Shown in pieces: positions 11,461 to 53,585 of a stretch of DNA of 64,000 bases. Below the pieces are notes generated by a model. It was not told where the DNA came from, did not search any database, and saw only the letters and a list, made by a program, of their open reading frames with translations. The DNA comes from a virus, in IMG/VR virus record IMGVR_UViG_3300031555_005516, one strand, 5' to 3'. Positions within the stretch are counted from its first letter, which is position 1. Each line of letters starts with the position of its first letter. The translations under genes were made by a program, and so were the position numbers.

Positions 11461-11463
11461 TAC

Positions 11464-13634: not shown

Positions 13635-13727
13635 ATATTTCTCCTATCATATTTTCTTTTTATACACCTTTATTATAATATAAATTTAAAAATAAGTCAA
13701 GTATAGTTTCATCCGCATTTTTCATTA

Positions 13728-13756: not shown

Positions 13757-13790
13757 ATATATGTAATAAAGAAAGAGAGGAAATAAAAAT

Positions 13791-14114: not shown

Positions 14115-14156
14115 GCGCCGCTGGAAAAATTTGGAAAAACGCGAGGTAAAAAGAAA

Positions 14157-14880: not shown

Positions 14881-14890
14881 TAAGCATTTA

Positions 14891-14922
14891 GAAGCGACGC
14901 ATCTGCGCCGCTTCTTTTTTAT
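14891..14922 (+). terminator. rho-independent terminator
   Basis: hairpin gaagcgacgcatctgcgccgcttc + tttttt. Confidence 0.75.
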
Positions 14923-18420: not shown

Positions 18421-19164
18421 ATGACGAATGTAATGGAGAGAGTGCAGAAGCATTATGAGCGCGCGGTAGAGCATTATGGTGCAGGCGCAGTTCTTGGCGT
18501 ATTTTGTTATGGCTCTTGGAATTATAACACAGCGCTTGAAAATTCGGATGTCGATACCAAGTGTATCCTTGTCCCTAATCTCTATTCTCTTGCTATTAAG
18601 CCATACGAGGTAAAGCATCTTCATATTGACGATGAGGTTTGCGAGTGTATGTCGATAATGCATATGGTTGCAAATTGGAAGAAGCAGAATATCAACTTTG
18701 TTGAAATTCTGTTTACCGACTATTGCATTATCAACCCTTTCTATCAAGAGGTTTGGTATGGTTATTTTTCTAAAGAGATGCGTGAAAGGATTGCGCGCTA
18801 TGATATTGCGGCAGCAGTTAAGTCGATGTCACATCAGGCGCTTCATACAATGCATCAAGACCCAACTGATCTTAAGAAACTTATGAATACTGCAAGAATT
18901 GCTAATACTCTTGCAAATCTTGTAACCAATAGAGATAGGTCCTATAAGGATATTATCTGGCAGAACGAAAATATTCGTGGTATTCGCACTCTTGAGACGC
19001 CTATTCCTCCTAACTTTATAAAAGATATGGAAATCTACTTTGAGTCGATGATTGAGCACGCCGATAGTTGGGGAACCACTCCGTGGGAAAAGCAGGCGCT
19101 TGACGAGTTTCTTGAAAGTTTCATTTTAGATATGATTAAATACAGAATGCAGTCACTTCAATGA
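18421..19164 (+). CDS. Pol-beta-superfamily nucleotidyltransferase (minimal NTase domain), immediately upstream of tRNA array
   Basis: GS...enSDVDT motif (CYGSWNYNTALENSDVDTKC) typical of nucleotidyltransferase fold. Confidence 0.5.
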   Translation: MTNVMERVQKHYERAVEHYGAGAVLGVFCYGSWNYNTALENSDVDTKCILVPNLYSLAIKPYEVKHLHIDDEVCECMSIMHMVANWKKQNINFVEILFTDYCIINPFYQEVWYGYFSKEMRERIARYDIAAAVKSMSHQALHTMHQDPTDLKKLMNTARIANTLANLVTNRDRSYKDIIWQNENIRGIRTLETPIPPNFIKDMEIYFESMIEHADSWGTTPWEKQALDEFLESFILDMIKYRMQSLQ

Positions 19165-19178: not shown

Positions 19179-19253
19179 ACGGGATTAACTCAGCGGAAGA
19201 GTAATCGCCTTCTAAGCGATAAGCCAAAGGTTCGAATCCTTTATCCCGTGCCA
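19179..19253 (+). tRNA. tRNA-Arg(TCT)
   Basis: acceptor acgggat/atcccgt, anticodon stem atcgc/gcgat, loop cttctaa, T-arm aaagg-ttcgaat-ccttt, encoded CCA. Confidence 0.7.
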
Positions 19254-19342
19254 CAAGGACAACATGGGGAATGTAGTAAGCGTCTCGCCGCAAAAGGAGA
19301 CCAGATGACCGTGCTACCCGTTCGGCGGTTGGAAGTAAATAT

Positions 19343-19418
19343 GCGCCACTAGCTTAGGTGGTAAAGCAGCTGATTCTTAATCAGCAGACCCAAGGTTCGA
19401 GCCCTTGGTGGCGCACCA
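19343..19418 (+). tRNA. tRNA-Lys(CTT)
   Basis: acceptor gcgccac/gtggcgc, loop ttcttaa, T-arm caagg-ttcgagc-ccttg, CCA encoded. Confidence 0.75.
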
Positions 19419-19546
19419 AATGCGATATAAACCTCATCTCTATTCGGGTTTATATAAAGACTGAAAGAAGTGTTTAAACATAGAGATAAAAACACTAGCA
19501 AAGGACAACTCTATCAGAATCGCCTTAGATACCTTTGCATTTTTAT

Positions 19547-19621
19547 GCGGGATTAGTTTAATGGACAGAACGTGGCGCTACGGACGCCAAGACAAGGGTT
19601 CGATTCCTTTATCCCGTGCCA
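19547..19621 (+). tRNA. tRNA-Arg(ACG)
   Basis: acceptor gcgggat/atcccgt (G1.U72), anticodon stem tggcg/cgcca, loop ctacgga. Confidence 0.65.
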
Positions 19622-19714
19622 ATACACAACCGACGGACAAGGCTTAGGCGTATGAAACAGGACGGTGGGACGCGTGTGGTCGAGTTTGTGTTAATAAACA
19701 AAAGGAGAGAGGAA

Positions 19715-19873
19715 ATGAGTAATAAAAAGCCGCTTGAAGCAAAAGAGACTCAAGCTATGCGTAAAGAAAGAATGCGCAACTCGCCCTCTCTGCATACAAG
19801 AGTAATTGAAAGTAAGAAGAAACATAATCGCAAGCGTGAAAAGGCGCACGACTGTCGCTCTATGGAAGATTAG
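19715..19873 (+). CDS. small highly basic protein
   Basis: 52 aa from ATG 19715 after RBS aaaggagagagg; ends in TAG then continues 11 codons to TAA if TAG is read. Confidence 0.3.
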   Translation: MSNKKPLEAKETQAMRKERMRNSPSLHTRVIESKKKHNRKREKAHDCRSMED

Positions 19874-19952
19874 GGTAAAAATTTTTTCAAAAGTAATTAA
19901 AGTATTAAAAGAAATTTTAATATAATAATACCCACTCAGAAAGGAGAGGCTT

Positions 19953-20198
19953 ATGGGTTGGAAAAGAAGTAGAGACCAAAGAAGACGAGATAAACACTGT
20001 TATTCCCAAACCAAAACTTGGTATGGTAAAGGTGTTTACTATGATGAAGAAAAAGGTATTTATCGCAGATATCAAATGCCAGAGCGAGTTCGCTTTGTTA
20101 AGCGAAAATGTAATCGCGCTGTCCGTCGCTATAAAGGCGATTTAGGCAGCAAAGGAAGATATCGTAAAATTTCTGAGTTTTGGTGGGAGGTTTTATGA
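19953..20198 (+). CDS. small basic protein
   Basis: 81 aa, RBS aaaggagagg. Confidence 0.35.
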   Translation: MGWKRSRDQRRRDKHCYSQTKTWYGKGVYYDEEKGIYRRYQMPERVRFVKRKCNRAVRRYKGDLGSKGRYRKISEFWWEVL

Positions 20199-20205
20199 GA
20201 GATAT

Positions 20206-20280
20206 AGGGGATTGGTGTAACGGCTAGCATACGCGGCTCCAACCCGCTTGGTCTGGGTTCGAATCCTAGGTCCCCTGCCA
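20206..20280 (+). tRNA. tRNA-Trp(CCA)
   Basis: acceptor aggggat/gtcccct, loop ctccaac, T-arm ctggg-ttcgaat-cctag, CCA encoded. Confidence 0.65.
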
Positions 20281-20334
20281 AAAACATTTTAATCCATATC
20301 TTAAGGCATTTAAAAGTAATTTCTTGCGCAATTA

Positions 20335-20363
20335 TTGATTTTTATAAAAAAATATGATATAAT
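20335..20363 (+). promoter_or_regulatory. Class II promoter
   Basis: TTGATT 20335-20340, TATAAT 20358-20363. Confidence 0.65.
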
Positions 20364-20403
20364 ATATATATGTAATAATGAGAGAGGAAGAAAAGAAAAA
20401 AAA

Positions 20404-20622
20404 ATGAAAGCAAAAATAAGACTTGATACAATGCGTGATGTTCAAGAGTTTGTTAACATCACAACTAAGATGGAAGGCGCAGTTCATATCACCGATGGAG
20501 CGGGGCTTAAGGTTAATGCAAAATCATTGCTTGGCGCACTTTATGCAATGGAGTTTGATGAACTCTGGTGCGAAGCAGAGAATGATATTTATCGAAATAT
20601 AAGCGATTTTATTATCGTTTAA
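20404..20622 (+). CDS. hypothetical protein
   Basis: 73 aa from ATG 20404 after RBS gagaggaag. Confidence 0.35.
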   Translation: MKAKIRLDTMRDVQEFVNITTKMEGAVHITDGAGLKVNAKSLLGALYAMEFDELWCEAENDIYRNISDFIIV

Positions 20623-20632
20623 TCATTCTCTA

Positions 20633-20661
20633 TTGATTTTATTAAAAAAATATGATATAAT
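20633..20661 (+). promoter_or_regulatory. Class II promoter driving non-coding leader + tRNA cluster
   Basis: TTGATT 20633-20638, TATAAT 20656-20661; no ORF for ~370 nt downstream. Confidence 0.6.
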
Positions 20662-20667
20662 ATATAT

Positions 20668-21037
20668 ACAATAGAAAAGCAAAGAAGCAAAAAGTGAACG
20701 GAGTTGCGTAGTCCCGTGAAAGTCTGAAAGACAACTACGCTTGGTATAGTCGCAAGGACTGCATGAGGTCTGCGTGACATTGGGAGAATACTCAACTCCT
20801 ATGAAAAAATGAGCGTGGCTTCCTCGTGACGGAGCTGACGTTGTGGGTGTGAAAGAGAGAGAACCCTCCGCATAGGAGCTGCATTTACTTTTGTTCTCCA
20901 ACCTGCAAGCGAATTGCAAAAGTGGGTGAATAAAGGCGGGAAATACCTGTAAGCATCAGTAGACAACCGTTAGGAGTCTGAAAATGCTTGTGTACACACG
21001 CGGTGGGGATAACCGCGATACGAACCCCTTGGAATAT
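20668..21037 (+). ncRNA. GC-rich non-coding transcript upstream of tRNAs (candidate structured RNA)
   Basis: ~50% GC in a 35% GC genome, no ORF, promoter immediately upstream. Confidence 0.3.
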
Positions 21038-21111
21038 GGGACCTTAGCTCAGATGGTAGAGCAGTAGAATGGATAAGCTATGTGGCAACGGTTCGAGTCC
21101 GTTAAGTCCCT
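21038..21111 (+). tRNA. tRNA with canonical acceptor/D/T arms but aberrant anticodon arm (identity unresolved)
   Basis: gggacct-ta-gctcagatggtagagc...aacgg-ttcgagt-ccgtt-aagtccc; anticodon region gtagaatggataagctat gives only a 4-bp stem with an 8-10 nt loop. Confidence 0.45.
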
Positions 21112-21324
21112 CTTATGTATAGGTTCACGATAATCCTATATTAGTAAAATCGTTTAGATAAACCCGCCGTTGATGGAGTGACGGTGTAGGGTATTTAATG
21201 AAGATATGGCGCAACAAATTACCCGTTTGTGAGTTGCGAGGTGGCATAATCAAAGGGCGGTTAGGGAGTAATCCGAGAGAAAACACCACGCTACTTGATG
21301 AGCGTTAAATGCATCAAGGCATGC

Positions 21325-21401
21325 GGTGCCGTTGAGAAGTGGTTTAACTCCTAGGGTTTTCATCCCTATATTCGCAGGTTCGAATCCTGTCGGCATCACC
21401 A
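21325..21401 (+). tRNA. tRNA-Glu(TTC)
   Basis: acceptor ggtgccg/cggcatc, anticodon stem taggg/cccta, loop ttttcat, CCA encoded. Confidence 0.6.
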
Positions 21402-21451
21402 GAAACGCGGTCAGAGGTACAGCGCGTAATCGAAATTACTGTCCCTCATAT

Positions 21452-21526
21452 GGAGCTTTAGTTAAGTGGTTACAACGAGGCGTTCTCAGCGCTTAGGCGA
21501 AGGTTCAATTCCTTCAAGCTTCACCA
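21452..21526 (+). tRNA. tRNA-Glu(CTC) (tentative)
   Basis: acceptor ggagctt/aagcttc, anticodon stem aggcg/cgctt, loop ttctcag, T-arm gaagg-ttcaatt-ccttc. Confidence 0.5.
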
Positions 21527-21850
21527 TATTAATGCCGCCCATCAACTAATAAGAGCGCCGATGGGGAAGAGTTAATCTCTTAAGGTCGCGCCACTCCTGT
21601 CCGAGTGGGAGTATAAATAAAAATCAGGCGTACAGTGCCAACTTGGCTGTACTTAATGGGAAGTTGGGATAAGGTTCCGAGGGTACTGTAAACTCTCACT
21701 TTATATCGCGGATGGGCATAGTGCTCACCAGAGCCTCATAAGCTCAGGGTGATCGGGGCAGTACCGATATCCGCACCCATAAATCCAAGAGAGGCGGCGA
21801 TGGGTAACTGCCGGCTTGGCTGTAGCATGCACTGGCGCCTCATTTTATAT

Positions 21851-21940
21851 GCAAGATTGGCGGAATAGGTTATACGCGCCTGTTATAGGGACGGGTTATA
21901 TACTCCATTAATGCTGGTTCGATTCCAGCATCTTGCTCCA
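21851..21940 (+). tRNA. tRNA-Leu(TAG), type II (long variable arm)
   Basis: acceptor gcaagat/atcttgc perfect, D-arm gcggaataggttatacgc resembles Leu tRNAs, loop tataggg, T-arm gctgg-ttcgatt-ccagc, 90 nt. Confidence 0.55.
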
Positions 21941-22017
21941 GTCCTCAGAGAACAAATGTCGAGGTTAAAATAGATGTGTGGTTGACTGACCTAAAGTTAT
22001 TTTATATGGGCGATTAA

Positions 22018-22106
22018 ACCGTTAAGATAGGCGGGTTAGACTGTAAATCTAGCGTCATTGTGACTCGAGTGGGTTTGATTCCCTCATCGCCCACCAATGA
22101 AATTTT
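22018..22106 (+). tRNA. tRNA-Tyr(GTA), type II
   Basis: acceptor gggcgat/atcgccc perfect, anticodon stem ttaga/tctag, loop ctgtaaa, long variable arm, CCA encoded. Confidence 0.6.
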
Positions 22107-22128
22107 AATCAATTACTATGAAACTTCT

Positions 22129-22157
22129 TTGATTTTTACAAAAATTTATGATATAAT
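22129..22157 (+). promoter_or_regulatory. Class II promoter
   Basis: TTGATT 22129-22134, TATAAT 22152-22157. Confidence 0.65.
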
Positions 22158-22192
22158 ATATATGTAAGATGAAAGAGAGGAAAAAAGAAAAA

Positions 22193-22537
22193 ATGAGTGT
22201 TGATTATGAGTCAGTTTTAATTTATGGATATAAAATATCTAAAAGTGAAATTAAGCGCCTTGAGGAAGAAACAGGTAAGTTCATAGAAGAGTTCTGCGAT
22301 AAGTACGATGGAACTGACAAGTACTCATTTATCACAGATAATGCCTATGGCAACTATGGTGATTACTATTTTGGAGTCACTCTTGGTCGAGAAATTGATC
22401 TTGACTCAATAGACGCTATCTGTTGGTTTGAATATGAAACAGATGCTATTGATAAAGAATTTGAAAATGCTTTTGGAGATATGTCTTTTGCAGATACTCA
22501 TCATCCAATGATGTATCATTTTGTTCGCGTCTGTTAA
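22193..22537 (+). CDS. hypothetical protein embedded in tRNA array
   Basis: 114 aa from ATG 22193 after RBS gagaggaaaaaag. Confidence 0.4.
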   Translation: MSVDYESVLIYGYKISKSEIKRLEEETGKFIEEFCDKYDGTDKYSFITDNAYGNYGDYYFGVTLGREIDLDSIDAICWFEYETDAIDKEFENAFGDMSFADTHHPMMYHFVRVC

Positions 22538-22556
22538 GGCGCAAAAGCCTCACTAT

Positions 22557-22644
22557 GAGGCGACACGGGGGAGTGGCGGAATTGGCGAGACGCCCGCGAC
22601 TTAAAATCGCGTACATTAGAAACGCTGTGAGTTCGAATCTCATC
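22557..22644 (+). tRNA. tRNA-Leu(TAA), type II
   Basis: acceptor gggggag/ctccccc perfect, anticodon stem cgcga/tcgcg, loop cttaaaa, A73, CCA encoded. Confidence 0.65.
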
Positions 22645-22973
22645 TCCCCCACCAGTCCCTTAAAGGGATCGATATCATACTCACCGATGAAAGCCAGATT
22701 CGGTATATAAATTAGTGGCGCTTCAAGTGGAAGGTTGTGTGTAAACCGATTAAGAAGAGAAAACGCAAGTGGAACACACAATACATAAGGTATGGGAATA
22801 AAGCGGCCCCACTAAGTAAGAGCAGCTTAGAGCGAATGCCTTAACAGGAGAAGGACAACTCCCCAAAAGCGCCCAACATTACGCAGAGGGAAAAACCCAA
22901 CAACTGGCTCACTGACGGGTTGTAAAACACAGTGACAAGATAAGGGCGTATGTTGGCGCAGCTTATCACTTAT

Positions 22974-23066
22974 AGTGGGGTAAGCCTAATTGGTAAGGCA
23001 GTAGGTTGCTAACCTACCAGTAATCGAGTAATCGGTGTGTGAGTTCAAGTCTCACCCTCGCTGCCA
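22974..23066 (+). tRNA. tRNA-Ser(GCT), type II
   Basis: acceptor agtgggg/cctcgct (2 G.U), anticodon stem gtagg/cctac, loop ttgctaa, long variable arm, G73. Confidence 0.6.
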
Positions 23067-23587
23067 GCTGTCGTTAATGCGGCGACATAAAAGGTGAAAC
23101 TCCCTAAGTTGGAAGCGTATTGGTGGACCATCCACAATCAGAAGTAGCGTTTGTCGATAGCGAATAGTCGAATCGTTGCAGTCTTTACAAGGCGCCATAT
23201 GGGACTGCGCAGAGTACGATAACCTCTGCTTTATATGGAGGGTTAATTGCGACGGCTCGCAACACCGTCTTGAAAACGGTTGGTACGGCTAGTACCCGTA
23301 TGGGGATCGACACCTCAGCTCTCCGCCAGAGGCTGGCACGCCGCCATAATTTGGATTGCCCAAAGATGCGTGCATCTATATAGAAACACCTGTAAGCAAT
23401 AAGCAGGTCTGGACGCAGATAAAAAGTAAAACGGTTAAGCGTAAGTCGACAACGCGGAAAAGTGGAATAGAGGCAACGCCGATCCACTTAAAGTTTCTAT
23501 TTTCGTTGGAGTAATCCAACTCTTGGTAGAGCAAATGGAACCATAAGGAAAAGCAATACGCGGCTGGCAACTTACTGCCACTTATAT

Positions 23588-23666
23588 AGGAGAGTAGCAC
23601 AGATGGTTAGCGCACAGTCCTGATAAGACTGAGGTCGGTTGAGTTCGAGTCTCCCCTCTCCTACCA
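23588..23666 (+). tRNA. tRNA-Ile(GAT)
   Basis: acceptor aggagag/ctctcct, anticodon stem cagtc/gactg, loop ctgataa, CCA encoded; T-stem partially mismatched. Confidence 0.5.
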
Positions 23667-23687
23667 AAATTTCAAAAGAAAAGAGAA

Positions 23688-23760
23688 ATAGTGGTTCGAA
23701 TCCATTCCTGTCTCCTAACCGGGGATGGGTAGTTTAAGTGGTTAAAACACTCATCGCGAG
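23688..23760 (+). ncRNA. orphan tRNA 3'-half-like (T-arm agtgg-ttcgaat-ccatt + acceptor) followed by tRNA 5'-half-like segment (ggggatgggtagtttaagtggttaaaac)
   Basis: 3' half has no upstream partner; ggggatg can pair with the upstream cattcct, suggesting a permuted, split or degenerate tRNA. Confidence 0.25.
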
Positions 23761-24030
23761 CTTTTGAAATTTGTTACAAGGAGTCATGACCTTGTCGTAA
23801 CATTGGTTAGCTATCCTAATGGTAAACCATGAGCGCGAAAATGCTCTAAAAACGATAGCAAGGGCAACCTATTGTCCGACCCCTGCCGATTATCAGCATA
23901 AGCGCAGTGCACGGCGCAAATAGGAGGATTGTCAGTTGTCTTATCTAACTATCTAAACTGAATAGTCAAGGGATACGAAGATCCCTCCCCGTAGCTGTTC
24001 GCGGGAGGTAACGAAGAGAGCAGCATCTAT

Positions 24031-24108
24031 GGGGGACTAGCTCCAATTGGCTAGAGCACGACACCTGCAATGTCGGGGTTATGAGTTCGAATCTCATGTC
24101 CTCCACCA
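24031..24108 (+). tRNA. tRNA-Ala(TGC)
   Basis: acceptor gggggac/gtcctcc with G3.U70 (Ala identity element), anticodon stem cgaca/tgtcg, loop cctgcaa, CCA encoded. Confidence 0.65.
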
Positions 24109-24112
24109 TTAT

Positions 24113-24188
24113 GCGTCTTTAACTCAGTTGGTAGAGTGCCATCCTTACAAGTTGGAAGTCGGCGGTTCGAGTCCGTCAAAACGCACCA
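24113..24188 (+). tRNA. tRNA-Val(TAC)
   Basis: D-arm actcagttggtagagt, loop cttacaa, T-arm ggcgg-ttcgagt-ccgtc, CCA encoded. Confidence 0.6.
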
Positions 24189-24363
24189 GTGCGTTGTCAC
24201 GCACGAGTATATTTTTACCTTTTTGCGAAAGCGGTCTTAGAAGGGCTCGTTTCACCCCATCGTTTTGGTTCAACTCCAAAATAAGCAAAAAGGGTTTGCG
24301 AATATGGTACATTGATAGTATGTGACCTTTCTTAGGTTGAGAGGTGGGTTCGATTTCCCACCT

Positions 24364-24392
24364 TTCTCCCATAATTGATTTTTAATAAAAAT
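24364..24392 (+). promoter_or_regulatory. Class II promoter inside tRNA array
   Basis: TTGATT 24364-24369, TATAAT 24387-24392. Confidence 0.6.
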
Positions 24393-24572
24393 TTTGTTAT
24401 AATATATATATACAAAATGAGAAAAGAAAAAACAAATACATATTGGTGACTGGATTTAGCGGTAAGACCTGTTCAGATAAACGCGTATCAACAGGCGCAA
24501 GTTAATCAGTCTTAAATCAGGAAACTTTCCTTTGGGCGTGCATTGCCCGCTCTGAGCCAGTCCTTTCTATAT

Positions 24573-24652
24573 AGTCTCGTAGCTCAGTCTTTGGCTAGAG
24601 CGCTAGTCTGTCACACTAGAGGTCGCGGGTTCGAGCCCCGTCGGGACTGCCA
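24573..24652 (+). tRNA. tRNA-Asp(GTC)
   Basis: acceptor agtctcg/cgggact, anticodon stem ctagt/actag, loop ctgtcac, T-arm gcggg-ttcgagc-cccgt, CCA encoded. Confidence 0.6.
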
Positions 24653-25342
24653 GAGGTGCCAATGCCTAATCATTGGTCAGGAGGCTAACCTGTGCGGTAA
24701 TACGCAGAGCGTCCGGGGTCCCGCATCCGTGAGCAACGGGGGAAAGATAATAGGTGCCACGATGCCGATAACAATTTGGGAGTGAATATTACTTGATGTA
24801 ATTAGCTCATTCTTAAAATCCTAGGTCTGAATGAGATACAGCTCTGTGAGGCAATAAAATGCAGTGGTAAATGGAGTTTGATGAACAGCCTATTCCACCC
24901 AGCTCTAAGGGTGAGTACTCGAGGTCTGGAGCAACGAGTAAATAAACAAAGTCTCCAGAGTCGTTTTGCGGTGTCGGAGAAAACCGCCATAGAGCGCAGG
25001 CTTTGAAGGTCATGAGGGATTAGAGCAATTGCCCCACTGGTAAGGAAGAGGAATGGAAATGCGCGGAAGTTCGAACACCTTCAAATCTACTAAGACCTCT
25101 GGAGGGGATGTTCCTCTCACATCAACAGAGCGAGTAGAGAGCGAAGTCGCAAACGCTATATAAGAAGACGAGTAATAGTGTTGAGTCTCAAGACACAGGC
25201 AGCGGTGGGCCAAATATCCGCTGGAGTTTCGCTTCCAAGATGAAATGCGAGATTTATGATGTGGCTTAGTAGTAGCGTAGGTTTATCCGACAAAGCTATG
25301 AAAGGCGCGGGCCCAGCTTCCCGTATCCAAGAGCTGGAATTT

Positions 25343-25418
25343 CGGGGTGTAGCCTAGTTGGTTAGGCGCTTGCTTTGGGAGCAAGATCACGCGGGTTCGA
25401 GTCCTGTCACTCCGTCCA
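25343..25418 (+). tRNA. tRNA-Pro(TGG)
   Basis: D-arm gcctagttggttaggc, anticodon stem cttgc/gcaag, loop tttggga, CCA encoded. Confidence 0.65.
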
Positions 25419-25737
25419 ATAACTGTGCCTAAAAGATTCTTAGGGCAACGATTGGCGCCAATCCTTCTCCCAGTAGTTGGATAATTAGCGCATTAGATAC
25501 CTCCTATATAGAGTTCGGAGAGTGTTTCTCTTGCTGGGTATAAAAACTCTCCTCCTCTCTTTCTACATATGATTCTTTAGCCAAGTTCAGTTAAGGCAGC
25601 AGGCTGCAACCCTGTGATCGTTGGAGCGAAGCCAACAAGAATCTCCATTGTTTTACCGTAGCAAAGAAAAACGGTATGCAGAGACTTTCATCTAACCACC
25701 ATTAGATGAAAGCAACCTCCAAGTTAAAGAAAAATCA

Positions 25738-25766
25738 TTGATTTTTTTAAAAAATTATGATATAAT
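25738..25766 (+). promoter_or_regulatory. Class II promoter
   Basis: TTGATT 25738-25743, TATAAT 25761-25766; followed by 37-codon ORF 25801..25914. Confidence 0.55.
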
Positions 25767-25940
25767 ATATTTGTTAAGATAAAGAAAGGAAATAAAAGAA
25801 ATGAGAACAATTGAAAGCCTTCAGGCAAGAATAGAATTGCTTAAAAGCCGCAAACGCGAAAATGGTAGAATTATCCGTAAGTTAGAGCGGCAGATTAGAT
25901 CACTTCAAAAGTAATAATCGTGCTGCTACCACTTCGACAT

Positions 25941-26027
25941 GAGCGTGTAGTACAGCGGCGAGTACAAGGGACTTTTAATCCCTCGACATTATGTCCATCG
26001 CGGGTTCGATTCCCGCCACGCTCACCA
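25941..26027 (+). tRNA. type II (long-variable-arm) tRNA with anticodon TTT (Lys codon AAA) - unusual combination
   Basis: acceptor gagcgtg/cacgctc perfect, anticodon stem aggga/tccct perfect, loop cttttaa, variable arm cgacattatgtccatc, T-arm gcggg-ttcgatt-cccgc, A73, CCA. Confidence 0.5.
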
Positions 26028-26056
26028 AAAATAAAAAGGTAGCGTAAGGATAATTT

Positions 26057-26085
26057 GTTGAAAAAATAAAAAATTTATGATATAA
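26057..26085 (+). promoter_or_regulatory. Class II-like promoter (TTGAAA -35)
   Basis: TTGAAA 26057-26062, TATAAT 26080-26085. Confidence 0.5.
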
Positions 26086-26274
26086 TAAATATGTAAAATA
26101 AAGGCGATGCAATATAAACTCCTGACCCGAGTTTCCATCAACAAATTCTCGATCCAAAATTGCTCGAAAGAGGTCGCTAATCGTGGTTGAAATAGAGGAT
26201 TGGTGGACAAGTGGACACATGCGGCTTTGACCCGCACGAAGAAGGGGCGGTACCTTCATCCTCTGCCAAGATAT

Positions 26275-26351
26275 TCTCGGTTAGCTCAGTTGGTAGTAGC
26301 ACAAAGCTGTTAACTTTGGGGTCTGAGGTTCAAGCCCTCAACCGAGAGCCA
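26275..26351 (+). tRNA. tRNA-Asn(GTT)
   Basis: acceptor tctcggt/accgaga perfect, anticodon stem caaag/ctttg, loop ctgttaa, T-arm tgagg-ttcaagc-cctca, CCA encoded. Confidence 0.7.
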
Positions 26352-26567
26352 ACAGTCAGTTTAATCTGGCAACCGCGAAGACATGGATTAGCACTAAACT
26401 ACCACCGACTCAGACCAAGGTGCGGCTTACCGCGATATGGTAACGAGGTATGTGGCTTGTGGCAAAGCGGGATAAAAATTGGCAAAGTAAGTGCTTATGA
26501 GACTTTCTCATAGTTTTCCTCCCTTTCATAACAGCTTGGGTTGTGCTGCAAACAACCTTCTAAAAAT

Positions 26568-26645
26568 GTCAGTCTAGCCCAATTGGTAGAGGCACTAGTC
26601 TTAGGAACTAGCAAGTGATGGGTCCGAATCCCTCGATTGACACCA
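26568..26645 (+). tRNA. type I tRNA with anticodon TAG (reads CUA; Leu-like anticodon on a short-variable-arm body)
   Basis: acceptor gtcagtc/gattgac, anticodon stem ctagt/actag perfect, loop cttagga; T-stem imperfect, T-loop tccgaat. Confidence 0.4.
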
Positions 26646-26649
26646 TGGA

Positions 26650-27280
26650 GCTACTTCCAAGCCGTAAGGTGAATGTAGATGACTTCTGGAGTATTCAGGA
26701 TCATAAGAGTACTAACCACGAGCCAACCTCGCAGCACGAGCACGAAAGCGTTGGTGACTATACGGTATCAATAGGCGAATCCGTACGCGCGACGAGGCAT
26801 GATGCGAAAAATCAAAAAGGTGGCAGCTTGCTCGAAACGATTATTGGAACTTGGACATAAATTAATTCGATATTGATGTGGAACGGTACTGCCAAAAACC
26901 AATCTGATCCAAGCGGAAACCGAAAGGTTGAAACATTAATATTCGATATAAGTAAATAACCTTGATTTCATTGAGTATTTTGAGGTGATTACTACTGAGA
27001 AAATCAGAGTAGGCTTGAGAGAGCGCTCACGAAAATGTAATTGAAATCAAATGTCGAGAAAATCGTGGATTTCGTCCACTCGAAAAGTAGTTTAGCGACG
27101 AAAAGTAGAGTGCGATTGGCGCCTAGGATGTGGTGTGGTTCTGGTAGACCTCTTAACGAATGTCTAAGCCAGATGTAGATTGAAAGATGAAACGGTTATC
27201 TACTCGAATTGTGGAAGGTAGCAAATACCCGATGCCCAAAAGAAGAAGATATGCGGTTGGCTGACCTAAGGCTTCACCTC
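26650..27280 (+). ncRNA. ~630 nt GC-rich non-coding region within tRNA array (candidate large structured RNA)
   Basis: no convincing ORF (track ORF 26615..26860 overlaps the tRNA and looks spurious); GC content much higher than the genome. Confidence 0.25.
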
Positions 27281-27282
27281 CC

Positions 27283-27367
27283 TATTTAATATGCACCTGT
27301 CGCATAGTGGCCGATTGCACTCGCCTTGTAAGCGAGAGACCATGTCCGCGTTGGTTCGAATCCAACC
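27283..27367 (+). tRNA. type II tRNA with anticodon TGT (Thr codon ACA) - unusual combination
   Basis: acceptor gcacctg/caggtgc perfect, anticodon stem ctcgc/gcgag perfect, loop cttgtaa, variable arm agaccatgtccgc, T-arm gttgg-ttcgaat-ccaac, CCA encoded. Confidence 0.5.
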
Positions 27368-27384
27368 AGGTGCTCCATGGCGTC

Positions 27385-36232: not shown

Positions 36233-37638
36233 ATGTATAAGGCTTATATAACTACACTTAAAAATGTGCGCCCTCATCCCAATGCAGATAGACTGCTTCT
36301 TGCAGACTGTTTTGGAAATACTATATGCGTCTCTCTTGATTATAAAGAGGGACAGCTTGGTATCTATCTACCTACCGATGGTCAGGTATCAGTAGAATTT
36401 GCTAAACATAATAATCTACTTCGTAAGAAAGACGAAAATGGAGTGAATATAGGTGGCTACATGGATCCTGACAAACGCAATATAACCGCTATTCGTTTGC
36501 GCGGAGAGAAATCAGATGGTATTTTCCTTCCTTTATCTGCGCTCGACTATTGCTTCGAAGATGAGGCAGCCGCCGCGCATCTTAAAGAGGGAGATATAAT
36601 CGAAGGTCTTGTTAATGGACACGAGATTTGTTGCAAGTATATTCCTCGTTCTAATACTCGTCGCGGTTATGTATCAGATGGAAACAGAACTCGTAAGAAG
36701 AAGGTCTCTACCGCGCCTTTGTTCAAGGAGCATGCTGACACTGAGCAGTTAGCTTATAACCTTGGCGCTTTTAAGCCTGGTGACGAGATTGAGATCACGC
36801 TTAAGCTACATGGCACTAGTCAGAGAACTGGTTATCTGCCTACTCTAAAAGGATACAAGCGTAGCCTTTGGGATAAGATCACTCGAAAAGAAGGTACTCC
36901 TATATATGACTGGGGCGGTGTTTCTGGCACCCGCCGCGTAGTTCTTGAAGATTATGAAGGTGGGTTTTATGGCTCTAATGAGTTTAGAGAAAAACATTCA
37001 AAGACTTTTGAAGGAAAACTTTGGAAGGGCGAGACTATTTACTACGAGGTAGTTGGTTTTACAACCGATGGAAAGCCTATTATGGGAGATGCAAATAATA
37101 AAAAGCTAAATGATAAAGATTTTATTAAACAGTATGGTGAAACTACTCGTTTTTCTTATGGATGCGCTCCTGATGGTTTAAAGACAATGTATGGCAATGA
37201 TGATAATGGAGTTTTTTCTATTTCTGTGGAAGTCCCTCAGTCAGATATCTATATCTACCGTATGACTATGACTAACGAGGATGGTGATGTAGTTGAGTAT
37301 ACTCCTGACTTCATGCGTTATCGCTGTGAACAGATGGGAGTAAAAACCGTTCCTGTAATGTGGAAAGGTATTATTCCTGACCACTGCGCGTCAGCAGACG
37401 ATCCTACTATTTCTGCGGGTGAATGGGTTTTAAGGCAGAGCAGTTTTATGATGGTCCCGATCCGATAGGCAAGACCCATGTGCGCGAAGGCGTAGTGGTT
37501 CGTATTGTTAATAGGCCTAAGTTCGCCGCATTTAAACATAAAAATTTTAGTTTCAAATGCTTAGAGGGGCTGGTTAAAGCTGAAGCAACTGCTCCCGATG
37601 TAGAAGAAGCACAAGAAGTTGAAGTAACAGAAGAATAA
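36233..37638 (+). CDS. RNA ligase (Rnl2-like nucleotidyltransferase) with N-terminal tRNA-binding (Myf/EMAP-like) domain; interrupted by a -1 frameshift near 37423-37468
   Basis: N-terminus HPNADRLLLADC like the tRNA-binding domain HPNADKL; motif I LKLHGTSQ (KxHGxN); motif IV EGVVVRIV and motif V KFAAFKHKN lie in the second frame (ORF 37423..37638), which overlaps ORF1 by 45 nt. Confidence 0.5.
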
Positions 37639-37646
37639 AAATAAAA

Positions 37647-37671
37647 AAGCCACGACTATGTGGCTTTTTTG
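37647..37671 (+). terminator. rho-independent terminator
   Basis: aagccacgactatgtggctt + ttttt. Confidence 0.75.
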
Positions 37672-37697
37672 ATTTTTTATAAAAATTATGTTATAAT
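37669..37697 (+). promoter_or_regulatory. Class II promoter
   Basis: TTGATT 37669-37674, TATAAT 37692-37697. Confidence 0.65.
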
Positions 37698-38051
37698 AAA
37701 TTATAAAAGAAATGAAAGAGAGAAAATAAGATGTTTACAGATGCAAAAACGGTAAGAGAAATAGCAAACAAAATAAATACAAATAAAAGACAAAGAGCAA
37801 GAGAAGTTGTCTAAGCTGAATGGGAAGAATTTATTGCTCCGAGAATTATTGCAGCCGCAGAGGTTGGCACTTATACCTGTAGTTATTTTTGGGCTGCTAA
37901 TACACTGATGGAACAGGGTGTTGATATGCATCTTTTTCAAGATGAGTTAAAAAAGTTTTTAGTTTTACTCGGATATAATGCAGAAATAGGAACCGATGAA
38001 CTTATGGGAGCAATAGTAAAAATAACGGTATATATAAATTGGAGGAACTAA

Positions 38052-38513
38052 ATGAGTAAATTGATTATGATGGTAGGTATTCCAGGATCGGGTAAGTCGA
38101 CCTATATTAAAAATAATTTTCCAGATATAACACCTGTATCAAGAGATGCAATCCGTTTTGAATCACTTGATGAAAGAGGCGGCGAATACTTTGACTACGA
38201 AGATGAAGTTTTTGATAAGTTTATTCGTCAAATTATCGGTAGCCTTGTAGCAGATGAAGTAACAATAGCAGATGCTACTCATCTTAATAAAAAATCACGC
38301 GCAAGAGTGCTTGATAAAGTGCGTAAGTTTGCAGATGAAATTGAGGCAGTGGTACTCGATACAAGTGTAGAAACTGCATTTAAAAGAAATGACCAACGCG
38401 AAGGGCGCGCTTGGGTTAAGCATGGTATTATCCGCCGTATGTTTTTCACAATGGAGATGCCTGAAGAGGCAGAGGGGTTTAATAAAATAACTGTTATAAA
38501 GGAGGAAGAGTAA
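38052..38513 (+). CDS. pnk: polynucleotide 5'-kinase (P-loop kinase domain, T4 Pnk-like)
   Basis: 153 aa; Walker A GIPGSGKST, SRD motif, lid R residues; operon with phosphoesterase and RNA ligase. Confidence 0.65.
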   Translation: MSKLIMMVGIPGSGKSTYIKNNFPDITPVSRDAIRFESLDERGGEYFDYEDEVFDKFIRQIIGSLVADEVTIADATHLNKKSRARVLDKVRKFADEIEAVVLDTSVETAFKRNDQREGRAWVKHGIIRRMFFTMEMPEEAEGFNKITVIKEEE

Positions 38514-39076
38514 TGAGTAAGATTTGGATCACGTCGGATCTGCATCTGGGGCATGACCGCGAATTTATTTGGGGCGCCCGAGGCTATGCAGATGTAAATG
38601 AAATGAATATTAAGCAGATTGAGAAATTCAATTCTGTGGTATCTGACGAAGACGAAGTATGGATTCTTGGAGATCTCGTTCTTGGCGACATTGAAGGCGG
38701 CCTAGCGCTTCTTAAGCAGCTTAAAGGTAAAATTCATGTTTGTCTCGGAAATCACGATACTTCAAGGAGAGAGCAGGCTTATCGCGATATGGGCTGGGAT
38801 GTGCAGCTTTGCGCGCGCCTAAAATATAAGAAAATCAACTTTTATCTTTCACATTATCCTACTATTACTCACAACCTTAAGGAGAAAGAACTCTGGCAGG
38901 TTGTAGTGAACTTATATGGTCACCTTCATCAGACATCTAACTTTTATAAAGGAGATCCTTGGATGTATCACGTAGGAGTGGATAGTCATGACGGATACCC
39001 TGTTTCTCTTGATCAAGTTCTCGAAGATATCAGAGCAGAAATGAATAAATGTGAGGAGATGCTTGATAATGACTAA
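38513..39076 (+). CDS. calcineurin-like metallophosphoesterase (candidate 2',3'-cyclic phosphate / 3'-phosphate end-healing phosphatase)
   Basis: motifs DLHLGHD, GDLVLGD, GNHD, H...H typical of lambda-phosphatase-like binuclear metallophosphoesterases. Confidence 0.65.
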   Translation: MSKIWITSDLHLGHDREFIWGARGYADVNEMNIKQIEKFNSVVSDEDEVWILGDLVLGDIEGGLALLKQLKGKIHVCLGNHDTSRREQAYRDMGWDVQLCARLKYKKINFYLSHYPTITHNLKEKELWQVVVNLYGHLHQTSNFYKGDPWMYHVGVDSHDGYPVSLDQVLEDIRAEMNKCEEMLDND

Positions 39077-40501: not shown

Positions 40502-40991
40502 ATACTATGCATATACAGATGGTTCTAGTCGCGGAAACCCTGGTCCAGGTGGTTGGGGAATGATCGTGATGAGCGGAGACGATTCTGAAATTCTTTTCTT
40601 AGAACACGATTCTGAAGATAATGTAACCAATAACCGTATGGAACTTAAAGCAATGATTTGCGCCCTCAATTATGCAGAGTCTAATCCACAACATCAATTC
40701 GTTATTTACTCTGATAGCGCCTATGTTGTTAATAGCATTACTCAATGGGCCGATACCTGGGCTAAGAATAATTGGACAAAAAAAGATAAAAAACCTATTC
40801 AAAATTTAATATATATACAAGAAGCTTATAAATTATATCAACAACTTAGTTTTGCCACGCAAATTCTGCAAGTACCAGGACATGCAAATATATTAGGTAA
40901 TGAATTAGCAGATTGCTTAGCTACAGGTAATATAAAACAATTTAACAAGCTTTGTGAAGAGTATAATATTAAATACAAAGGAGAAACCTAA
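40494..40991 (+). CDS. rnhA: ribonuclease H (RNase HI)
   Basis: YTDGSSRGNPGPGGWGMI...NNRMELKAMICAL...VIYSDSAYVV...NWTKK; catalytic DEDD arrangement. Confidence 0.75.
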   Translation: MAKYYAYTDGSSRGNPGPGGWGMIVMSGDDSEILFLEHDSEDNVTNNRMELKAMICALNYAESNPQHQFVIYSDSAYVVNSITQWADTWAKNNWTKKDKKPIQNLIYIQEAYKLYQQLSFATQILQVPGHANILGNELADCLATGNIKQFNKLCEEYNIKYKGET

Positions 40992-40992
40992 T

Positions 40993-41850
40993 ATGGATCA
41001 AAAAAAATATCTTGTTTATATGCACGAAAGAAAAAAGACTGGTTAGAAATACTTTGGTATCACTTCTGCTTCTGCCACGGCTAGATGGCGTAATGGTAAC
41101 GGGTATAACAAAAATTAGCGTTTTTGGCGAGATATACAAGAAGACGGATGGCAAGAAGGATTTATCCATTCTATTTTACATGAAAATCTGTCTGAAAAAG
41201 AAGCTTTAGAACTAGAAACAAAATATATTTTACAATACGAAACTTATCTTCCAGAAAAGGGCTATAATAAAAGAATTAAAGATGGATGTAGAGATGCTTT
41301 ATCAAATGAAGCTCGTCAAAATATGTCACAAGGACAAATAATAAGATATTAGCGAGAAGAAGAACATATTAAACAATCTATAAAAACAAAAGAAAGGTTG
41401 CAATAGTATCCTGAGCTTAAAGAATAGTGCGTACAAGCATTATAGAATTGGCGAAAAAATTTATCGCCTGAAGAAAAGCAAAAACATGATAATGCATACG
41501 GCTATGCTGTTAAGTGTTTAGAGACAGGTCAAATTTATCCTACTATTAGTGAAGCTGCACGAAAAACACATTGCGATAGAAAAGGTATCAATCGTTGTGT
41601 TTTAGGTCAAGCGCTATCCATTAATGGTAAACATTGGGTGAAAGCAGATGATAATATAACTACAATCGAAATAATTGAGAGTCGTCGTAAAAAAACAGGC
41701 CGAGCTCGATCTATAATTTGTTTAGAAACGGGTGAAATATTTTTAAGCATTGGAGATGCGGAACGAAAATATGGAGGAGACATTTAGCATTGCGTTATGG
41801 GTTTGCAGCAAACAGCTGCGGGATATCATTGGGAATATTATAATTCATAA
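40993..41850 (+). CDS. GIY-YIG homing endonuclease with NUMOD3 repeats; 7 in-frame TAG codons
   Basis: 285 codons with 7 TAG and no TAA/TGA; YLVYMHERKKTG-TAG-KYFGITSA (GIY-YIG), two TG(Q/E)IY(P/L)(T/S)I(S/G)(E/D)A(A/E)RK NUMOD3-like repeats. Confidence 0.65.
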
Positions 41851-41902: not shown

Positions 41903-41933
41903 TATATATGTAATAAGTTAAGAAATCAATATT

Positions 41934-42009
41934 GCGGAGTAGCCAAGCGGGAAGGCGGCACTCTCTAAAAGTGCATATGCGTGAGTTCGAATCTCACCTC
42001 CGCCGCCAT
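41934..42009 (+). tRNA. amber suppressor tRNA, anticodon CTA, tRNA-Gln-like body (tRNA-Sup(CTA) / Gln)
   Basis: acceptor tgcggag/ctccgcc (U1, G73 as in tRNA-Gln), D-arm gccaagcgggaaggc = tRNA-Gln D-arm, anticodon stem gcact/agtgc perfect with loop ctCTAaa, T-arm gtgag-ttcgaat-ctcac, CCA encoded. Confidence 0.7.
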
Positions 42010-42619: not shown

Positions 42620-43242
42620 ATGAAATTAAACACCGCGCGCTTGCGCATTTTAATTGGTATATTAAGTATGGCACTTCCTTGGATTGTTGCTTTACTCTTC
42701 GGCGGCATACCCTCATCTATTTCCGCCACTTATTATATCGCTCAATGTATAACCCCTTTTATGGGAATCTTATGCTCAGCATCTTTTCTTTTGATTTCCT
42801 ACCGAGGATATACTAAATTGGATGATATTATTCTGACACTTGCAGGAATATGTGGCTTGCTTATCTGTTTCTGTCCCTGTTGGGATGCATTAGCGCCGGC
42901 GCTAGTAGGAACCTTTTAGATTCCTGTAAACATTAGTGCAACCATTCATAATGTATCAGCTATTGTATTCTTCGGTCTTCTTTCTTACAACTCTTTATTT
43001 TTGTTTACAAAATCAAGCGGAGAAATGACTAAAAAGAAAAAGGCGCGTAATATTATCTATAGAATTTGCGGAATTGGAATGATTGCTTCATTTGGCATTT
43101 TGTTATTACCTTATTTCCGTATTTAGATTTGGTTAATAGAAACCATTGCGCTTTCTTTCTTTGGCATTAGCTTTTTAACTAAAGCAGATGTATTCCCATT
43201 CTTATTCTGTGATACAAGTTATAAACAAGGCGATGATTAATA
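42620..43242 (+). CDS. polytopic membrane protein with two in-frame TAG codons
   Basis: track ORF 42620..42919 continues in frame through TAG at 42917 and a second TAG to TAA at 43240; hydrophobic throughout. Confidence 0.45.
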
Positions 43243-52167: not shown

Positions 52168-52392
52168 ATGGAATACGAATTACATTTATATATAAGTTTA
52201 CAGCCTTCTGATAAAGCAGAGTTCATTACTGATTTACCAAAAATGCCTCCAGAAACTCCTTGGTGGGGACAAGGAGCGGTATTAACAGAAGAGGAATATA
52301 CAAAATACTTTCCAGATGGATATCAAACCGGAGAAGGAATATTTAATCTTTTAAAAGATTTATATAATACAAAGGAGTCTACTTTTGTATGA
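52168..52392 (+). CDS. hypothetical protein
   Basis: 74 aa. Confidence 0.4.
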   Translation: MEYELHLYISLQPSDKAEFITDLPKMPPETPWWGQGAVLTEEEYTKYFPDGYQTGEGIFNLLKDLYNTKESTFV

Positions 52393-53585
52393 TAATAATA
52401 TGCGTAATATCAATTCTTCTTGGAGCGGGAGGTCTTGCTTATGGTATATGGACTAAAACCACGTCCGTAAAAGCTAATCACTATACGGCAGAGGAGAATT
52501 AGAAGCTGGAAGAACTTAATTAGTCATTACATGCAACTCGCAAAAGTTTAGAAGCTCAAAATGACTTATTGATAAAATCTAACAATGAAATTTCTCAAAA
52601 GTATGAAGAGAACTGCAAAAAAACAAAAAACTCTTACGACAAATTAAATCAACTAACTCAATAGAAGTTATTATTAATAGATGAAATTCAAAGTAAACAA
52701 ATTGAAAAAGCAGGAGTTGAGGCGCAAATCACCGCTTTAAGCAGCTCTGTAGAGACAATGTTAGGCGACCTAAAAGCTGCAGCCCGCGCATCGTTTGAGC
52801 AATACTGTGATACTCTTGATTATGAATACAAATAGAAAGAACAAGAGTTTGATATGGAGATAGATACTCTTGATCAATTATACTTTGATAGACTCCAAGA
52901 ACTTGATGCAAGAGAAAAAGGATTAATTGAAGAGCGCAGACAAGATATTGATGCTCTTGTATAGTTATTTTATGATAAGCAACAGTCAATGTCTAAAGAA
53001 TTGCAAGAAGAAGAGGCGGCAATGCGCGCCGATCTAGACTCAATCCGTAAAGAACTAGAAAAAATTCGTGCAACTAGGGCCGCCGCAATGGAAGCTCAAC
53101 TGCGCGAAGAAGAGATTAAAAACCAAGCAACATTCTATACTCTTCAACTTAATGAAGCAGATAAGCGTGACGTGGCATATCTTCAAAGTATCGAATATAA
53201 CTTGCGCGAACCAAGACCTCTACGCATGCTTATATGGTCTACGTTCTATAGAGATAAAGTCAATGACCTTGCGGCGCGCGTAGGTGCGGTGGGCGCAAGT
53301 GGAATATATAAAATAACTCACATTGACTCTGGTATATCCTATATCGGTCAGGCTAAAGATATTAAAGAGCGTTGGGTAACGCATGTTAAATGTAGTTTGG
53401 GTATCGATACCCCTGTAACAAGTCAACTCTATGCTTTTACAAGAGAAAAGGGTATTGACAACTTCACTTTTGAGATATTAGAGAAATGTAGTATTAATGA
53501 ATTAAATGAAAAGGAGAAGTTTTATATTGACCTATATCAAACATATGATTTTGGACTGAATAAAACTCGTGGGAATAACTAAATG
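52389..53585 (+). CDS. membrane-anchored coiled-coil protein with C-terminal GIY-YIG nuclease domain; 5 in-frame TAG codons
   Basis: ATG 52389 (ATGA overlap), N-terminal TM IIICVISILLGAGGLAYGIW, coiled coil with 5 TAG at Gln-compatible heptad positions, runs in frame into ORF 52989..53582 whose C-terminus GIYKITHIDSGISYIGQAKDIKERWVTHVK is a GIY-YIG motif. Confidence 0.5.

Follow-up and report, generated by a model that had tools for sequence, protein, structure and literature searches.

The genes described here lie at positions 36,233 to 39,076 of a 64,000-nucleotide stretch of viral DNA (IMG/VR virus record IMGVR_UViG_3300031555_005516; the whole stretch is called the window below), and their products belong to the RNA ligase, polynucleotide kinase and metallophosphoesterase families. 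We consider it rather likely that they represent a phage module of a known kind for healing and sealing RNA (possibly RNA/DNA) ends, in which the ligase of this particular phage is probably inactive. The ligase gene is interrupted by a frameshift that separates motif I from motifs IV and V, and the kinase and the phosphoesterase follow it as a closely packed pair. An initial annotation had seen here a cassette for healing and sealing RNA ends, and the matches of all three proteins to the corresponding families agree with a phage gene set that heals and seals nucleic-acid ends. It had also described the three genes as adjacent; their open reading frames (ORFs) do lie together on the plus strand, but a hairpin, a promoter-like site and a small ORF stand between the ligase and the kinase. 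The features of the locus are as follows (lengths in amino acids, aa).

36233..37468, plus strand: N-terminal ligase fragment, 411 aa (ORF list)
37423..37638, plus strand: C-terminal ligase fragment, 71 aa, in the −1 frame relative to the 411-aa ORF
37427..37435, plus strand: frameshift site (alignment of 18 intact relatives and DNA comparison)
37642..37671, plus strand: terminator-like hairpin with a 13-pair stem and a T-run (consensus scan; pattern match only)
37669..37697, plus strand: sigma-70-like promoter match, 10 of 12 positions (consensus scan; pattern match only)
37731..38051, plus strand: small ORF with an in-frame TAA at 37812..37814 (translation, tblastn, three-way alignment, hidden Markov model)
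38052..38513, plus strand: predicted stand-alone polynucleotide 5'-kinase, 153 aa (Pfam, NCBIfam, PDB match)
38513..39076, plus strand: predicted binuclear metallophosphoesterase, 187 aa (Pfam, phrog_547, fold of an AlphaFold 2 (AF2) model)

Frameshift in the Ligase Gene

The 411-aa ORF begins with an OB domain (approximately residues 1–135), within which the HPNADRL motif is located (36275..36295), and continues into an adenylyltransferase region with ligase motif I, TLKLHG, with KLHG at 36803..36814 and the lysine codon at 36803..36805. Motif IV (EGVVVR, 37486..37503) and motif V (KHKN, 37534..37545) are absent from this frame and sit in the 71-aa ORF, and the 411-aa ORF terminates at an out-of-frame TAG. 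When the two ORFs are joined, the resulting 468-aa model gives one continuous match to phrog_968 'RNA ligase' (residues 2–446, E = 5e-63), which indicates that they are pieces of one ancestral gene. The 71-aa fragment shares 91% identity with the C-terminal end of an uninterrupted ligase, that of the related virus L001. From the Trp codon (TGG) to the Ala codon (GCA), there are 8 nucleotides (nt) in the window (GTTTTAAG) versus 12 nt in the intact gene of L107, and the junction is uninterrupted in the 18 aligned relatives (...ISAGEWIK(L/N)(K/V)AEQFYDGPDP...). Judging from these alignments, the lesion is a net 4-nt deletion relative to the intact relatives.

Three short contigs from three other JGI samples (L021–L023) are 99.9–100% identical to the window and carry the identical lesion, two of them together with private single-nucleotide polymorphisms, which rules out an assembly or sequencing error. 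In a search of 5.8 billion proteins, the truncated 411-aa product was itself found (P0001, on 6 contigs), and no intact ligase allele of more than 80% identity was present; the remaining matches were intact, 450–494 aa long and at most 80% identical. On these comparisons, the frameshift is real and specific to this lineage, and it appears to be fixed there.

It is quite improbable, in our estimation, that the split ligase still works, be it through −1 ribosomal frameshifting in the overlap 37423..37468 or through assembly of the 411-aa and 71-aa fragments. The apparent fixation of the lesion, present in at least four assemblies, would speak for such a rescue, as would the state of the −1-frame fragment, which has an ATG start, no further stops and the high identity to an intact relative given above. 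However, the overlap contains no slippery heptamer of the form X_XXY_YYZ, the RNA downstream folds no better than shuffled sequence (z = +0.93), and the relatives all encode a continuous protein, which points to a recent deletion and not to a conserved recoding site; on these three grounds, programmed −1 frameshifting was rejected. The spacing between GGGTG and the ATG is poor for an independent start of the fragment, and a nonsense codon in the neighbouring gene (see below) fits local decay. Read-through of the TAG was rejected as a rescue as well: past the frameshift, the original frame meets only TAG stops (37466, 37493, 37562 and 37601) before a TAA at 37625..37627, so that TAG suppression would prolong the wrong frame past all four and turn the broken gene into a 464-aa protein with an out-of-frame tail, still without motifs IV and V.

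In the Deinococcus ligase DraRnl, where motif IV reads 305-EGVVV-309, the substitution E305A makes the enzyme defective in adenylylation (PMC1807946); a product without motifs IV and V is for this reason expected to be inactive. Sealing in this phage is most likely lost or strongly reduced. No second ligase was found in the window with an NgrRnl-like ligase (from L027, see below) as the query, RtcB, Rnl1 and Rnl2 not having been searched for.

Ligase Family

The initial annotation had placed the ligase in the Rnl2 type on the basis of motifs I, IV and V. The motifs exist, IV and V in the −1 frame, but comparisons of sequence and predicted fold indicate a different type: the protein is a divergent, insertion-expanded member of the Rnl5 type, represented by DraRnl and by NgrRnl of Naegleria gruberi. 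The N-terminal domain, read earlier as a fused tRNA-binding domain, does have a tRNA_bind/EMAP-like OB fold, but it is the signature OB module of the Rnl5 family and neither a new fusion nor a tRNA-recognition add-on.

The window ligase matches NCBIfam TIGR02306 RNA_lig_DRB0094 over residues 7–201 (E = 5e-14, 51.9 bits against a cut-off of 151), and in Pfam it matches only PF21189 (PHA02142 OB-fold), below the cut-off (E = 3e-4). Among intact homologs, PF09414 RNA_ligase is matched by 25 of 25 and PF21189 by 24 of 25, with scores in one of them, P0002, of 24.1 and 23.0 bits, respectively, against cut-offs of 27; both of these Pfam models are passed by the different ligase that L027 encodes. 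Scores below the curated thresholds of all three models suggest that the phage proteins form a divergent subfamily.

A Foldseek search of the PDB with the AF2 model of P0002 returned NgrRnl for all of the best 13 matches (top E = 5.7e-9, about 440 alignment columns), followed by PheRS-beta B2, MetRS-C, EMAP II/p43 and Trbp111, which align with the N-domain (E from 2e-3 to 0.25). With hhalign, the ligase family could be aligned, motif I included, with an NgrRnl-like phage ligase (E = 6e-5), which in turn matches NgrRnl with E = 9e-38. Sequence searches of the PDB with the ligase, as a single sequence or as a 19-sequence profile, gave nothing significant.

The architecture agrees with that of DraRnl, for which an N-module like the PheRS B2 OB fold, a motif IV of EGVVV and the absence of a C-terminal domain were described in 2007, along with a homolog in Aeromonas phage 44RR2.8t (PMC1807946). 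The OB module related to PheRS-beta B2/tRNA_bind is present in the window ligase, and no domain follows the adenylyltransferase: the C-terminal fragment stops 44 residues past EGVVVR, and in DraRnl about 30 residues remain past motif IV (PMC1807946). The window ligase thus shares with DraRnl and NgrRnl an N-terminal OB module followed by an adenylyltransferase with nothing C-terminal to it, and with DraRnl a motif I of the form T-x-K-x-H-G and the EGVVV of motif IV. It differs from both in belonging to a family whose members are about 125 aa longer owing to insertions in the catalytic domain, in its membership of a separate phage family, phrog_968, and in being frameshifted. The full set of ligase motifs in one frame is lacking in the window and is present in intact relatives, with motifs Ia, III and IIIa assigned by eye. 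The Rnl2 assignment was rejected, given the OB domain at the front, the lack of the C-terminal helical domain of Rnl2 and the marginal matches to T4 Rnl2 (E = 0.27 by profile and 0.06–0.4 by fold). The family is annotated as 'RNA ligase' in 379 cultured-phage records, with phages of Bacillus, Mycobacterium, Microbacterium, Gordonia and Prevotella among them.

Kinase and Phosphoesterase

The kinase matches AAA_33 of Pfam (E = 6.5e-16), the polynucleotide kinase family phrog_505 (1.8e-17) and the kinase region of NCBIfam bacter_Pnkp (2.6e-14). Its closest solved relative is the kinase domain of Clostridium thermocellum Pnkp (CthPnkp; 4gp7, E = 7e-7), and the next in the PDB are PSTK, Pnkp1 and T4 Pnk (1ltq, E = 3e-3). 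The protein has the P-loop GIPGSGKST, the general base D32, R35, T76 and the lid arginines R112/R116/R119; residues K15, S16, D32, R35, T76, R112, R116 and R119 align with K21, S22, D38, R41, T80, R116, R120 and R123 of the CthPnkp kinase, the catalytic roles of which are documented (PMC3902929). Judged by this alignment, it is a P-loop enzyme of the polynucleotide kinase type with a complete active site, and the earlier description of it as a P-loop 5'-kinase is borne out, T4 Pnk being a more distant relative.

The phosphoesterase matches Metallophos_2 above the Pfam cut-off (E = 4e-11) and phrog_547 (E = 3e-42). Its metal-binding motifs are D9-x-H11, G53-D54, G79-N80-H81-D82, H114 and G136-H137-x-H139, and residues D9, H11, D54, N80, H81, H114, H137 and H139 are invariant in 39 homologs. 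In a Foldseek search with the AF2 model (mean predicted local distance difference test score, pLDDT, of 94), the nearest structures were Aquifex aq_1665 (1xm7; E = 9e-10, template modelling (TM) score 0.69), MJ0936 (1s3l among the matches listed), Rv0805 and LpxH; 1xm7 is also the best PDB relative by sequence. Neither lambda phosphatase nor the CthPnkp phosphatase was among the top 50 Foldseek matches, and the protein carries LGDLVLGD and GNHD, not the PPP-type GDxxDRG/GNHE. It had been called a lambda-phosphatase-like binuclear enzyme: the binuclear metal motifs are there, but the motifs and the fold and sequence relatives rule out a lambda-phosphatase assignment beyond the superfamily level. 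The phosphoesterase is a calcineurin-superfamily enzyme that resembles aq_1665 and MJ0936. Some of its homologs have a C-terminal extension of 40–60 aa, which in P0217 and P0224 takes the form of a Cys-rich tail with the end ...YKRDPPDGG(F/Y)YG; the window copy has no extension of this kind.

Linkage across Viruses

Linkage was assessed in 80 viral loci that encode a phosphoesterase homolog (42–88% identity), with 6-kb flanks. The kinase lies upstream in 72 of the 80; the distance is about 100 nt or less in most of these and reaches about 1.3 kb in a few. In the window, its stop codon overlaps the phosphoesterase start (TAATG). The kinase and the phosphoesterase are a conserved pair. A ligase of the window type is encoded within 6 kb in 28 loci and a canonical NgrRnl-like ligase in a further 17, which gives an Rnl5-type ligase in 45 of 80. 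L027, which has the closest phosphoesterase relative (88%), encodes such an NgrRnl-like ligase of 396 aa (2694..3884; motif I KIDG; match to 5cot with E = 9e-38). It occupies the same slot, between a sigma-factor gene and the kinase, which makes the ligase position a site at which two Rnl5 subtypes are swapped. In the clade L005–L018, which is more distant, the genes flanking the ligase encode two metallophosphoesterases and a weakly matching HD-domain protein, and the kinase profile also matches families with fusion to a phosphatase or an RNA ligase (phrog_505, phrog_246 and phrog_8238). That the three activities act together is supported chiefly by this modular association, which recurs across the loci.

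The lineage with the broken ligase co-occurs in sample 3300029705 with a related phage whose ligase, 78% identical, is intact.

Interval between the Ligase and the Kinase

The terminator-like hairpin lies directly 3' of the ligase stop codon, and the promoter match (TTGATT-17-TATAAT with an extended −10 TG) lies ahead of a unit made up of the small ORF, the kinase and the phosphoesterase. The small ORF abuts the kinase ATG, and its internal TAA is also found in L021 and L022. Intact homologs occupy the same place upstream of the kinase in L001 (110 aa; tblastn E = 9e-11) and L027 (103 aa). A hidden Markov model of the small ORF, run over ORFs upstream of kinases, found a homolog in L027 only, so the small ORF is no general third member of the set. 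The nearest intact relatives have a gene of 257–266 aa (YomU_Tube) between the ligase and the kinase, which the window lacks. With two apparently inactivating mutations and a difference in gene content in one interval, the pattern fits local decay.

Many of the more distant relatives (among L031–L106; for example, L038 5290..5550 and L055 5226..5501) have a conserved protein of about 86–107 aa just before the kinase, with two CxxC pairs (FYCxxCGxKGIPxxRK...HxKKLYCxxC...) resembling a zinc ribbon. This gene was not detected in the window by tblastn (E > 2).

Genome Setting

Upstream of the cassette there is a phage sigma-70 gene; downstream lie genes for RNase H, a DUF5662 protein, topoisomerase II subunits, an NAD-dependent DNA ligase, a DnaB-like helicase and a primase. 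The cassette is placed in an early region of nucleic-acid (DNA/RNA) metabolism. Since the phage encodes its own DNA ligase, the Rnl5-type gene is not the replicative ligase. A nucleotide search of cultured phages with the cassette gave a single 49-nt match and nothing else.

Two further features, peripheral to the cassette, bear on its role.

18421..19164, plus strand: Pol-beta-type nucleotidyltransferase of an RlaP-like family (phrog_388; PF10127 in relatives), not linked to the cassette
19179..27377, plus strand: array of 20 tRNA genes (ARAGORN)

ARAGORN finds 22 tRNA genes in the window, two of them outside the array (6446..6515 and 41933..42008), in keeping with the large tRNA set noted earlier. 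The nucleotidyltransferase, described from the outset as abutting the array, ends 15 nt before its first tRNA. It belongs to phrog_388 (3e-11); the window copy matches only NTP_transf_2 (0.003) and gives no match to PF10127 RlaP at E ≤ 0.1, and 12 of 25 homologs (50–94% identical) do match PF10127 (best E = 6e-7). PDB searches with this protein were uninformative. Enzymes of the RlaP type extend damaged RNA 3' ends by one or two nucleotides (PMC12776372), which lends support in outline to the earlier idea of a nucleotidyltransferase acting in tRNA end repair.

A HAD protein (4615..5058) had also been counted with the system as a phosphatase. Its best family is phrog_2643, a 5'-3' deoxyribonucleotidase (1.6e-12), it scores 20.3 bits against HAD_PNKP (PF25109; cut-off 27.6), and it lies 31 kb from the cassette; we do not include it in the system as a Pnkp phosphatase.

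This phage probably decodes TAG as an amino acid. It encodes an amber-suppressor tRNA (anticodon CTA), and the stops of 43 plus-strand ORFs of at least 120 aa are 31 TAA, 11 TGA and a single TAG, the one at which the broken ligase ends out of frame. Immediately upstream of the suppressor tRNA lies a homing-endonuclease-like ORF (GIY-YIG/NUMOD1) whose only in-frame stops are 7 TAGs, with two of them inside the GIY-YIG match, and a second GIY-YIG-containing ORF has 5 in-frame TAGs. The regions behind this observation are 41933..42008, 40954..41850, 52389..53582 and 42620..43240. In a related 188-kb viral contig, L003, an otherwise intact ligase gene (6001..7440) has a stop at codon 3 (MY*AY...), where relatives have Lys, and stop-codon recoding may operate in that phage too. 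A tRNA with a four-base anticodon (ggat), to which ARAGORN assigns no amino acid, lies inside the array at 21038..21112. Positions 8000..14900 of the window contain no plus-strand ORF of at least 120 aa in the standard code and none of at least 150 aa with TAG as sense.

Proposed Mechanism and Alternatives

Rnl5 enzymes seal nicks in a duplex when the strand with the 3'-OH is RNA. In the ancestral module, the phosphoesterase, probably an Mn/Ni-type enzyme, would convert 2',3'-cyclic or 3'-phosphate ends to 3'-OH, as its metal site and its pairing with the kinase suggest, and the kinase, whose Pnk-type active site is complete, would phosphorylate 5'-OH ends of polynucleotides with an NTP as the donor. 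The ATP-dependent Rnl5-type ligase encoded upstream would then seal the healed 3'-OH/5'-PO4 break held in a duplex, for example, in a tRNA stem-loop. The present phage would have kept the healing enzymes and lost, or retained at a strongly reduced level, the sealing step, given the deletion in the ligase gene and the nonsense codon in the small ORF; the part left intact would be the compact unit in which the small ORF, the kinase and the phosphoesterase follow one another closely. Ancestrally, the module would most likely have served to mend tRNA or other RNA after cleavage by ribonuclease defences of the host; the phage, about 135 kb in size, has 22 tRNAs and an RlaP-like nucleotidyltransferase. 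Defence against anticodon nucleases of the PrrC/RloC type would be plausible, given the tRNA array, this nucleotidyltransferase and the framework set out in the cited sections of Iyer et al. 2021 (PMC7824862).

Several observations weigh against this interpretation. The AF2 model of P0002 is poor as a whole (mean pLDDT 54, TM 0.24–0.31), and the fold match to NgrRnl comes mainly from the N-domain, which is modelled well (pLDDT 80–90), and from local 3Di similarity. The solved relatives of the phosphoesterase have a generic phosphodiesterase function or none assigned, and homologs in Herelleviridae adjoin RNase H and further phosphoesterases, no RNA ligase being annotated up to 5 kb away. The tRNA array is 9–17 kb from the cassette. 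The cassette itself has DNA-replication genes around it, which makes a role at DNA ends possible. Moreover, we know of no established physiological substrate of Rnl5 ligases and of no tRNA specificity among them.

According to one alternative, the kinase–phosphoesterase pair, ancestrally with the ligase, processes DNA or RNA–DNA ends in replication or repair, such as nicks with 3'-phosphate/5'-OH termini or primer junctions. We regard this as unlikely. In its favour, RNase H, topoisomerase II, the NAD-dependent DNA ligase, the helicase and the primase are neighbours, the phosphoesterase has a weak match to PdeM of the ligase-associated DNA-damage-response family (4e-5), and knockout of DraRnl sensitises Deinococcus to radiation, as stated in the cited part of PMC5397189. 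However, Rnl5 enzymes need a ribonucleotide 3'-OH strand according to the cited parts of PMC5397189 and PMC4408790, the phage has a DNA ligase of its own, and the RlaP-like nucleotidyltransferase and the tRNA array point to RNA.

The view of the initial annotation, in which all three enzymes function as a novel T4-like counter-defence against anticodon nucleases and the OB domain of the ligase finds broken tRNA, seems improbable to us. The similarity of the N-domain fold to PheRS-B2, MetRS-C, EMAP II and Trbp111 speaks for this view, as do the 22 tRNAs and the RlaP-like enzyme abutting the array; but motifs IV and V of the ligase are out of frame, and in DraRnl, the generic OB module of the family is needed for adenylylation and nick sealing (PMC1807946). 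Nor is the enzyme combination as different as had been claimed, stand-alone Pnk, calcineurin-like/HD phosphoesterases and RlaP with tRNA arrays having already been described in phages in the cited sections of the survey (PMC7824862).

Finally, it is very improbable that immune signals of the cyclic-nucleotide kind, or 2',3'-cyclic nucleotides, are what the phosphoesterase breaks down and that the kinase acts on small molecules, without any polynucleotide repair: the fold neighbours Rv0805 (a cyclic-nucleotide phosphodiesterase) and MJ0936 (a generic diesterase), the homologs in phages with no RNA ligase annotated within 5 kb and the anti-signalling role proposed for calcineurin-like phosphodiesterases in the cited sections of PMC7824862 would allow it, but the kinase keeps the acceptor residues specific to polynucleotide kinases (D-x-x-R and Thr), and 45 of the 80 loci have an Rnl5 ligase linked to the pair.

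Relation to Known Systems

Of the known systems, CthPnkp of the Pnkp-Hen1 system combines the same chemistries, namely, a 5'-kinase, a binuclear metallophosphoesterase and an ATP-dependent ligase, and all of its kinase catalytic residues are shared. In the window, by contrast, the activities are on three separate polypeptides in two predicted transcription units, the phosphoesterase is aq_1665/MJ0936-like, and the ligase is of the Rnl5 type and not a Pnkp ligase module. T4 Pnkp and Rnl1, which counter PrrC, likewise heal 5'-OH ends and ends with a 2',3'-cyclic phosphate and then seal them, and the T4 kinase is a distant relative (1ltq); however, kinase and phosphatase are fused in T4, where the phosphatase is a domain of the DxDxT (HAD) type, and T4 Rnl1 lacks an N-terminal OB module and carries a tRNA-specificity domain at its C-terminus.

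In the sections cited here, the survey of Iyer et al. (PMC7824862) treats tRNA arrays together with RNA ligases, Pnk, phosphoesterases (with a calcineurin-like/HD minority) and RlaP as one counter-defence theme of jumbo and large phages. The ligases named there are RtcB, Rnl1 and Rnl2, and the phosphoesterases are mostly of the HAD or 2H type; a stand-alone kinase and an aq_1665-like phosphoesterase with Rnl5 ligases are not singled out in those sections. Thus, much is already known: each component family is annotated in PHROGs, phage homologs of Rnl5 have been on record since 2007, and the combined theme has been published. What the present analysis corrects is the following: the ligase is frameshifted, with a lesion apparently fixed in its lineage; it is of the Rnl5 and not the Rnl2 type; its OB domain is no novel tRNA sensor; and the phosphoesterase is not lambda-like.

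We also put forward, as a speculation that we ourselves think doubtful, that the kinase and the aq_1665-like phosphoesterase may constitute a two-protein enzyme for end healing, widespread among large phages that have so far been known from metagenomes, often encoded after the CxxC..CxxC zinc-ribbon protein, partnering interchangeably with two Rnl5 subtypes and retained after ligase loss.

For annotation, our results mean that the ligase should be called a frameshifted Rnl5-type gene and not an intact Rnl2-like, tRNA-targeted enzyme, and that the phosphoesterase should not be called lambda-phosphatase-like. The repeated linkage of Rnl5 ligases to Pnk, the phosphoesterase, the RlaP-like nucleotidyltransferase and tRNA arrays gives circumstantial support for a function in RNA-break repair, and the intact homologs (P0002 and the ligase of L027) are convenient material for work on the role of Rnl5. 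The broken and intact ligase lineages that share sample 3300029705 offer a natural comparison on the need for sealing. If the healing pair is indeed retained after loss of the ligase, end healing would be beneficial by itself, for example, by removing 2',3'-cyclic-phosphate ends or by passing the break on to a host ligase.

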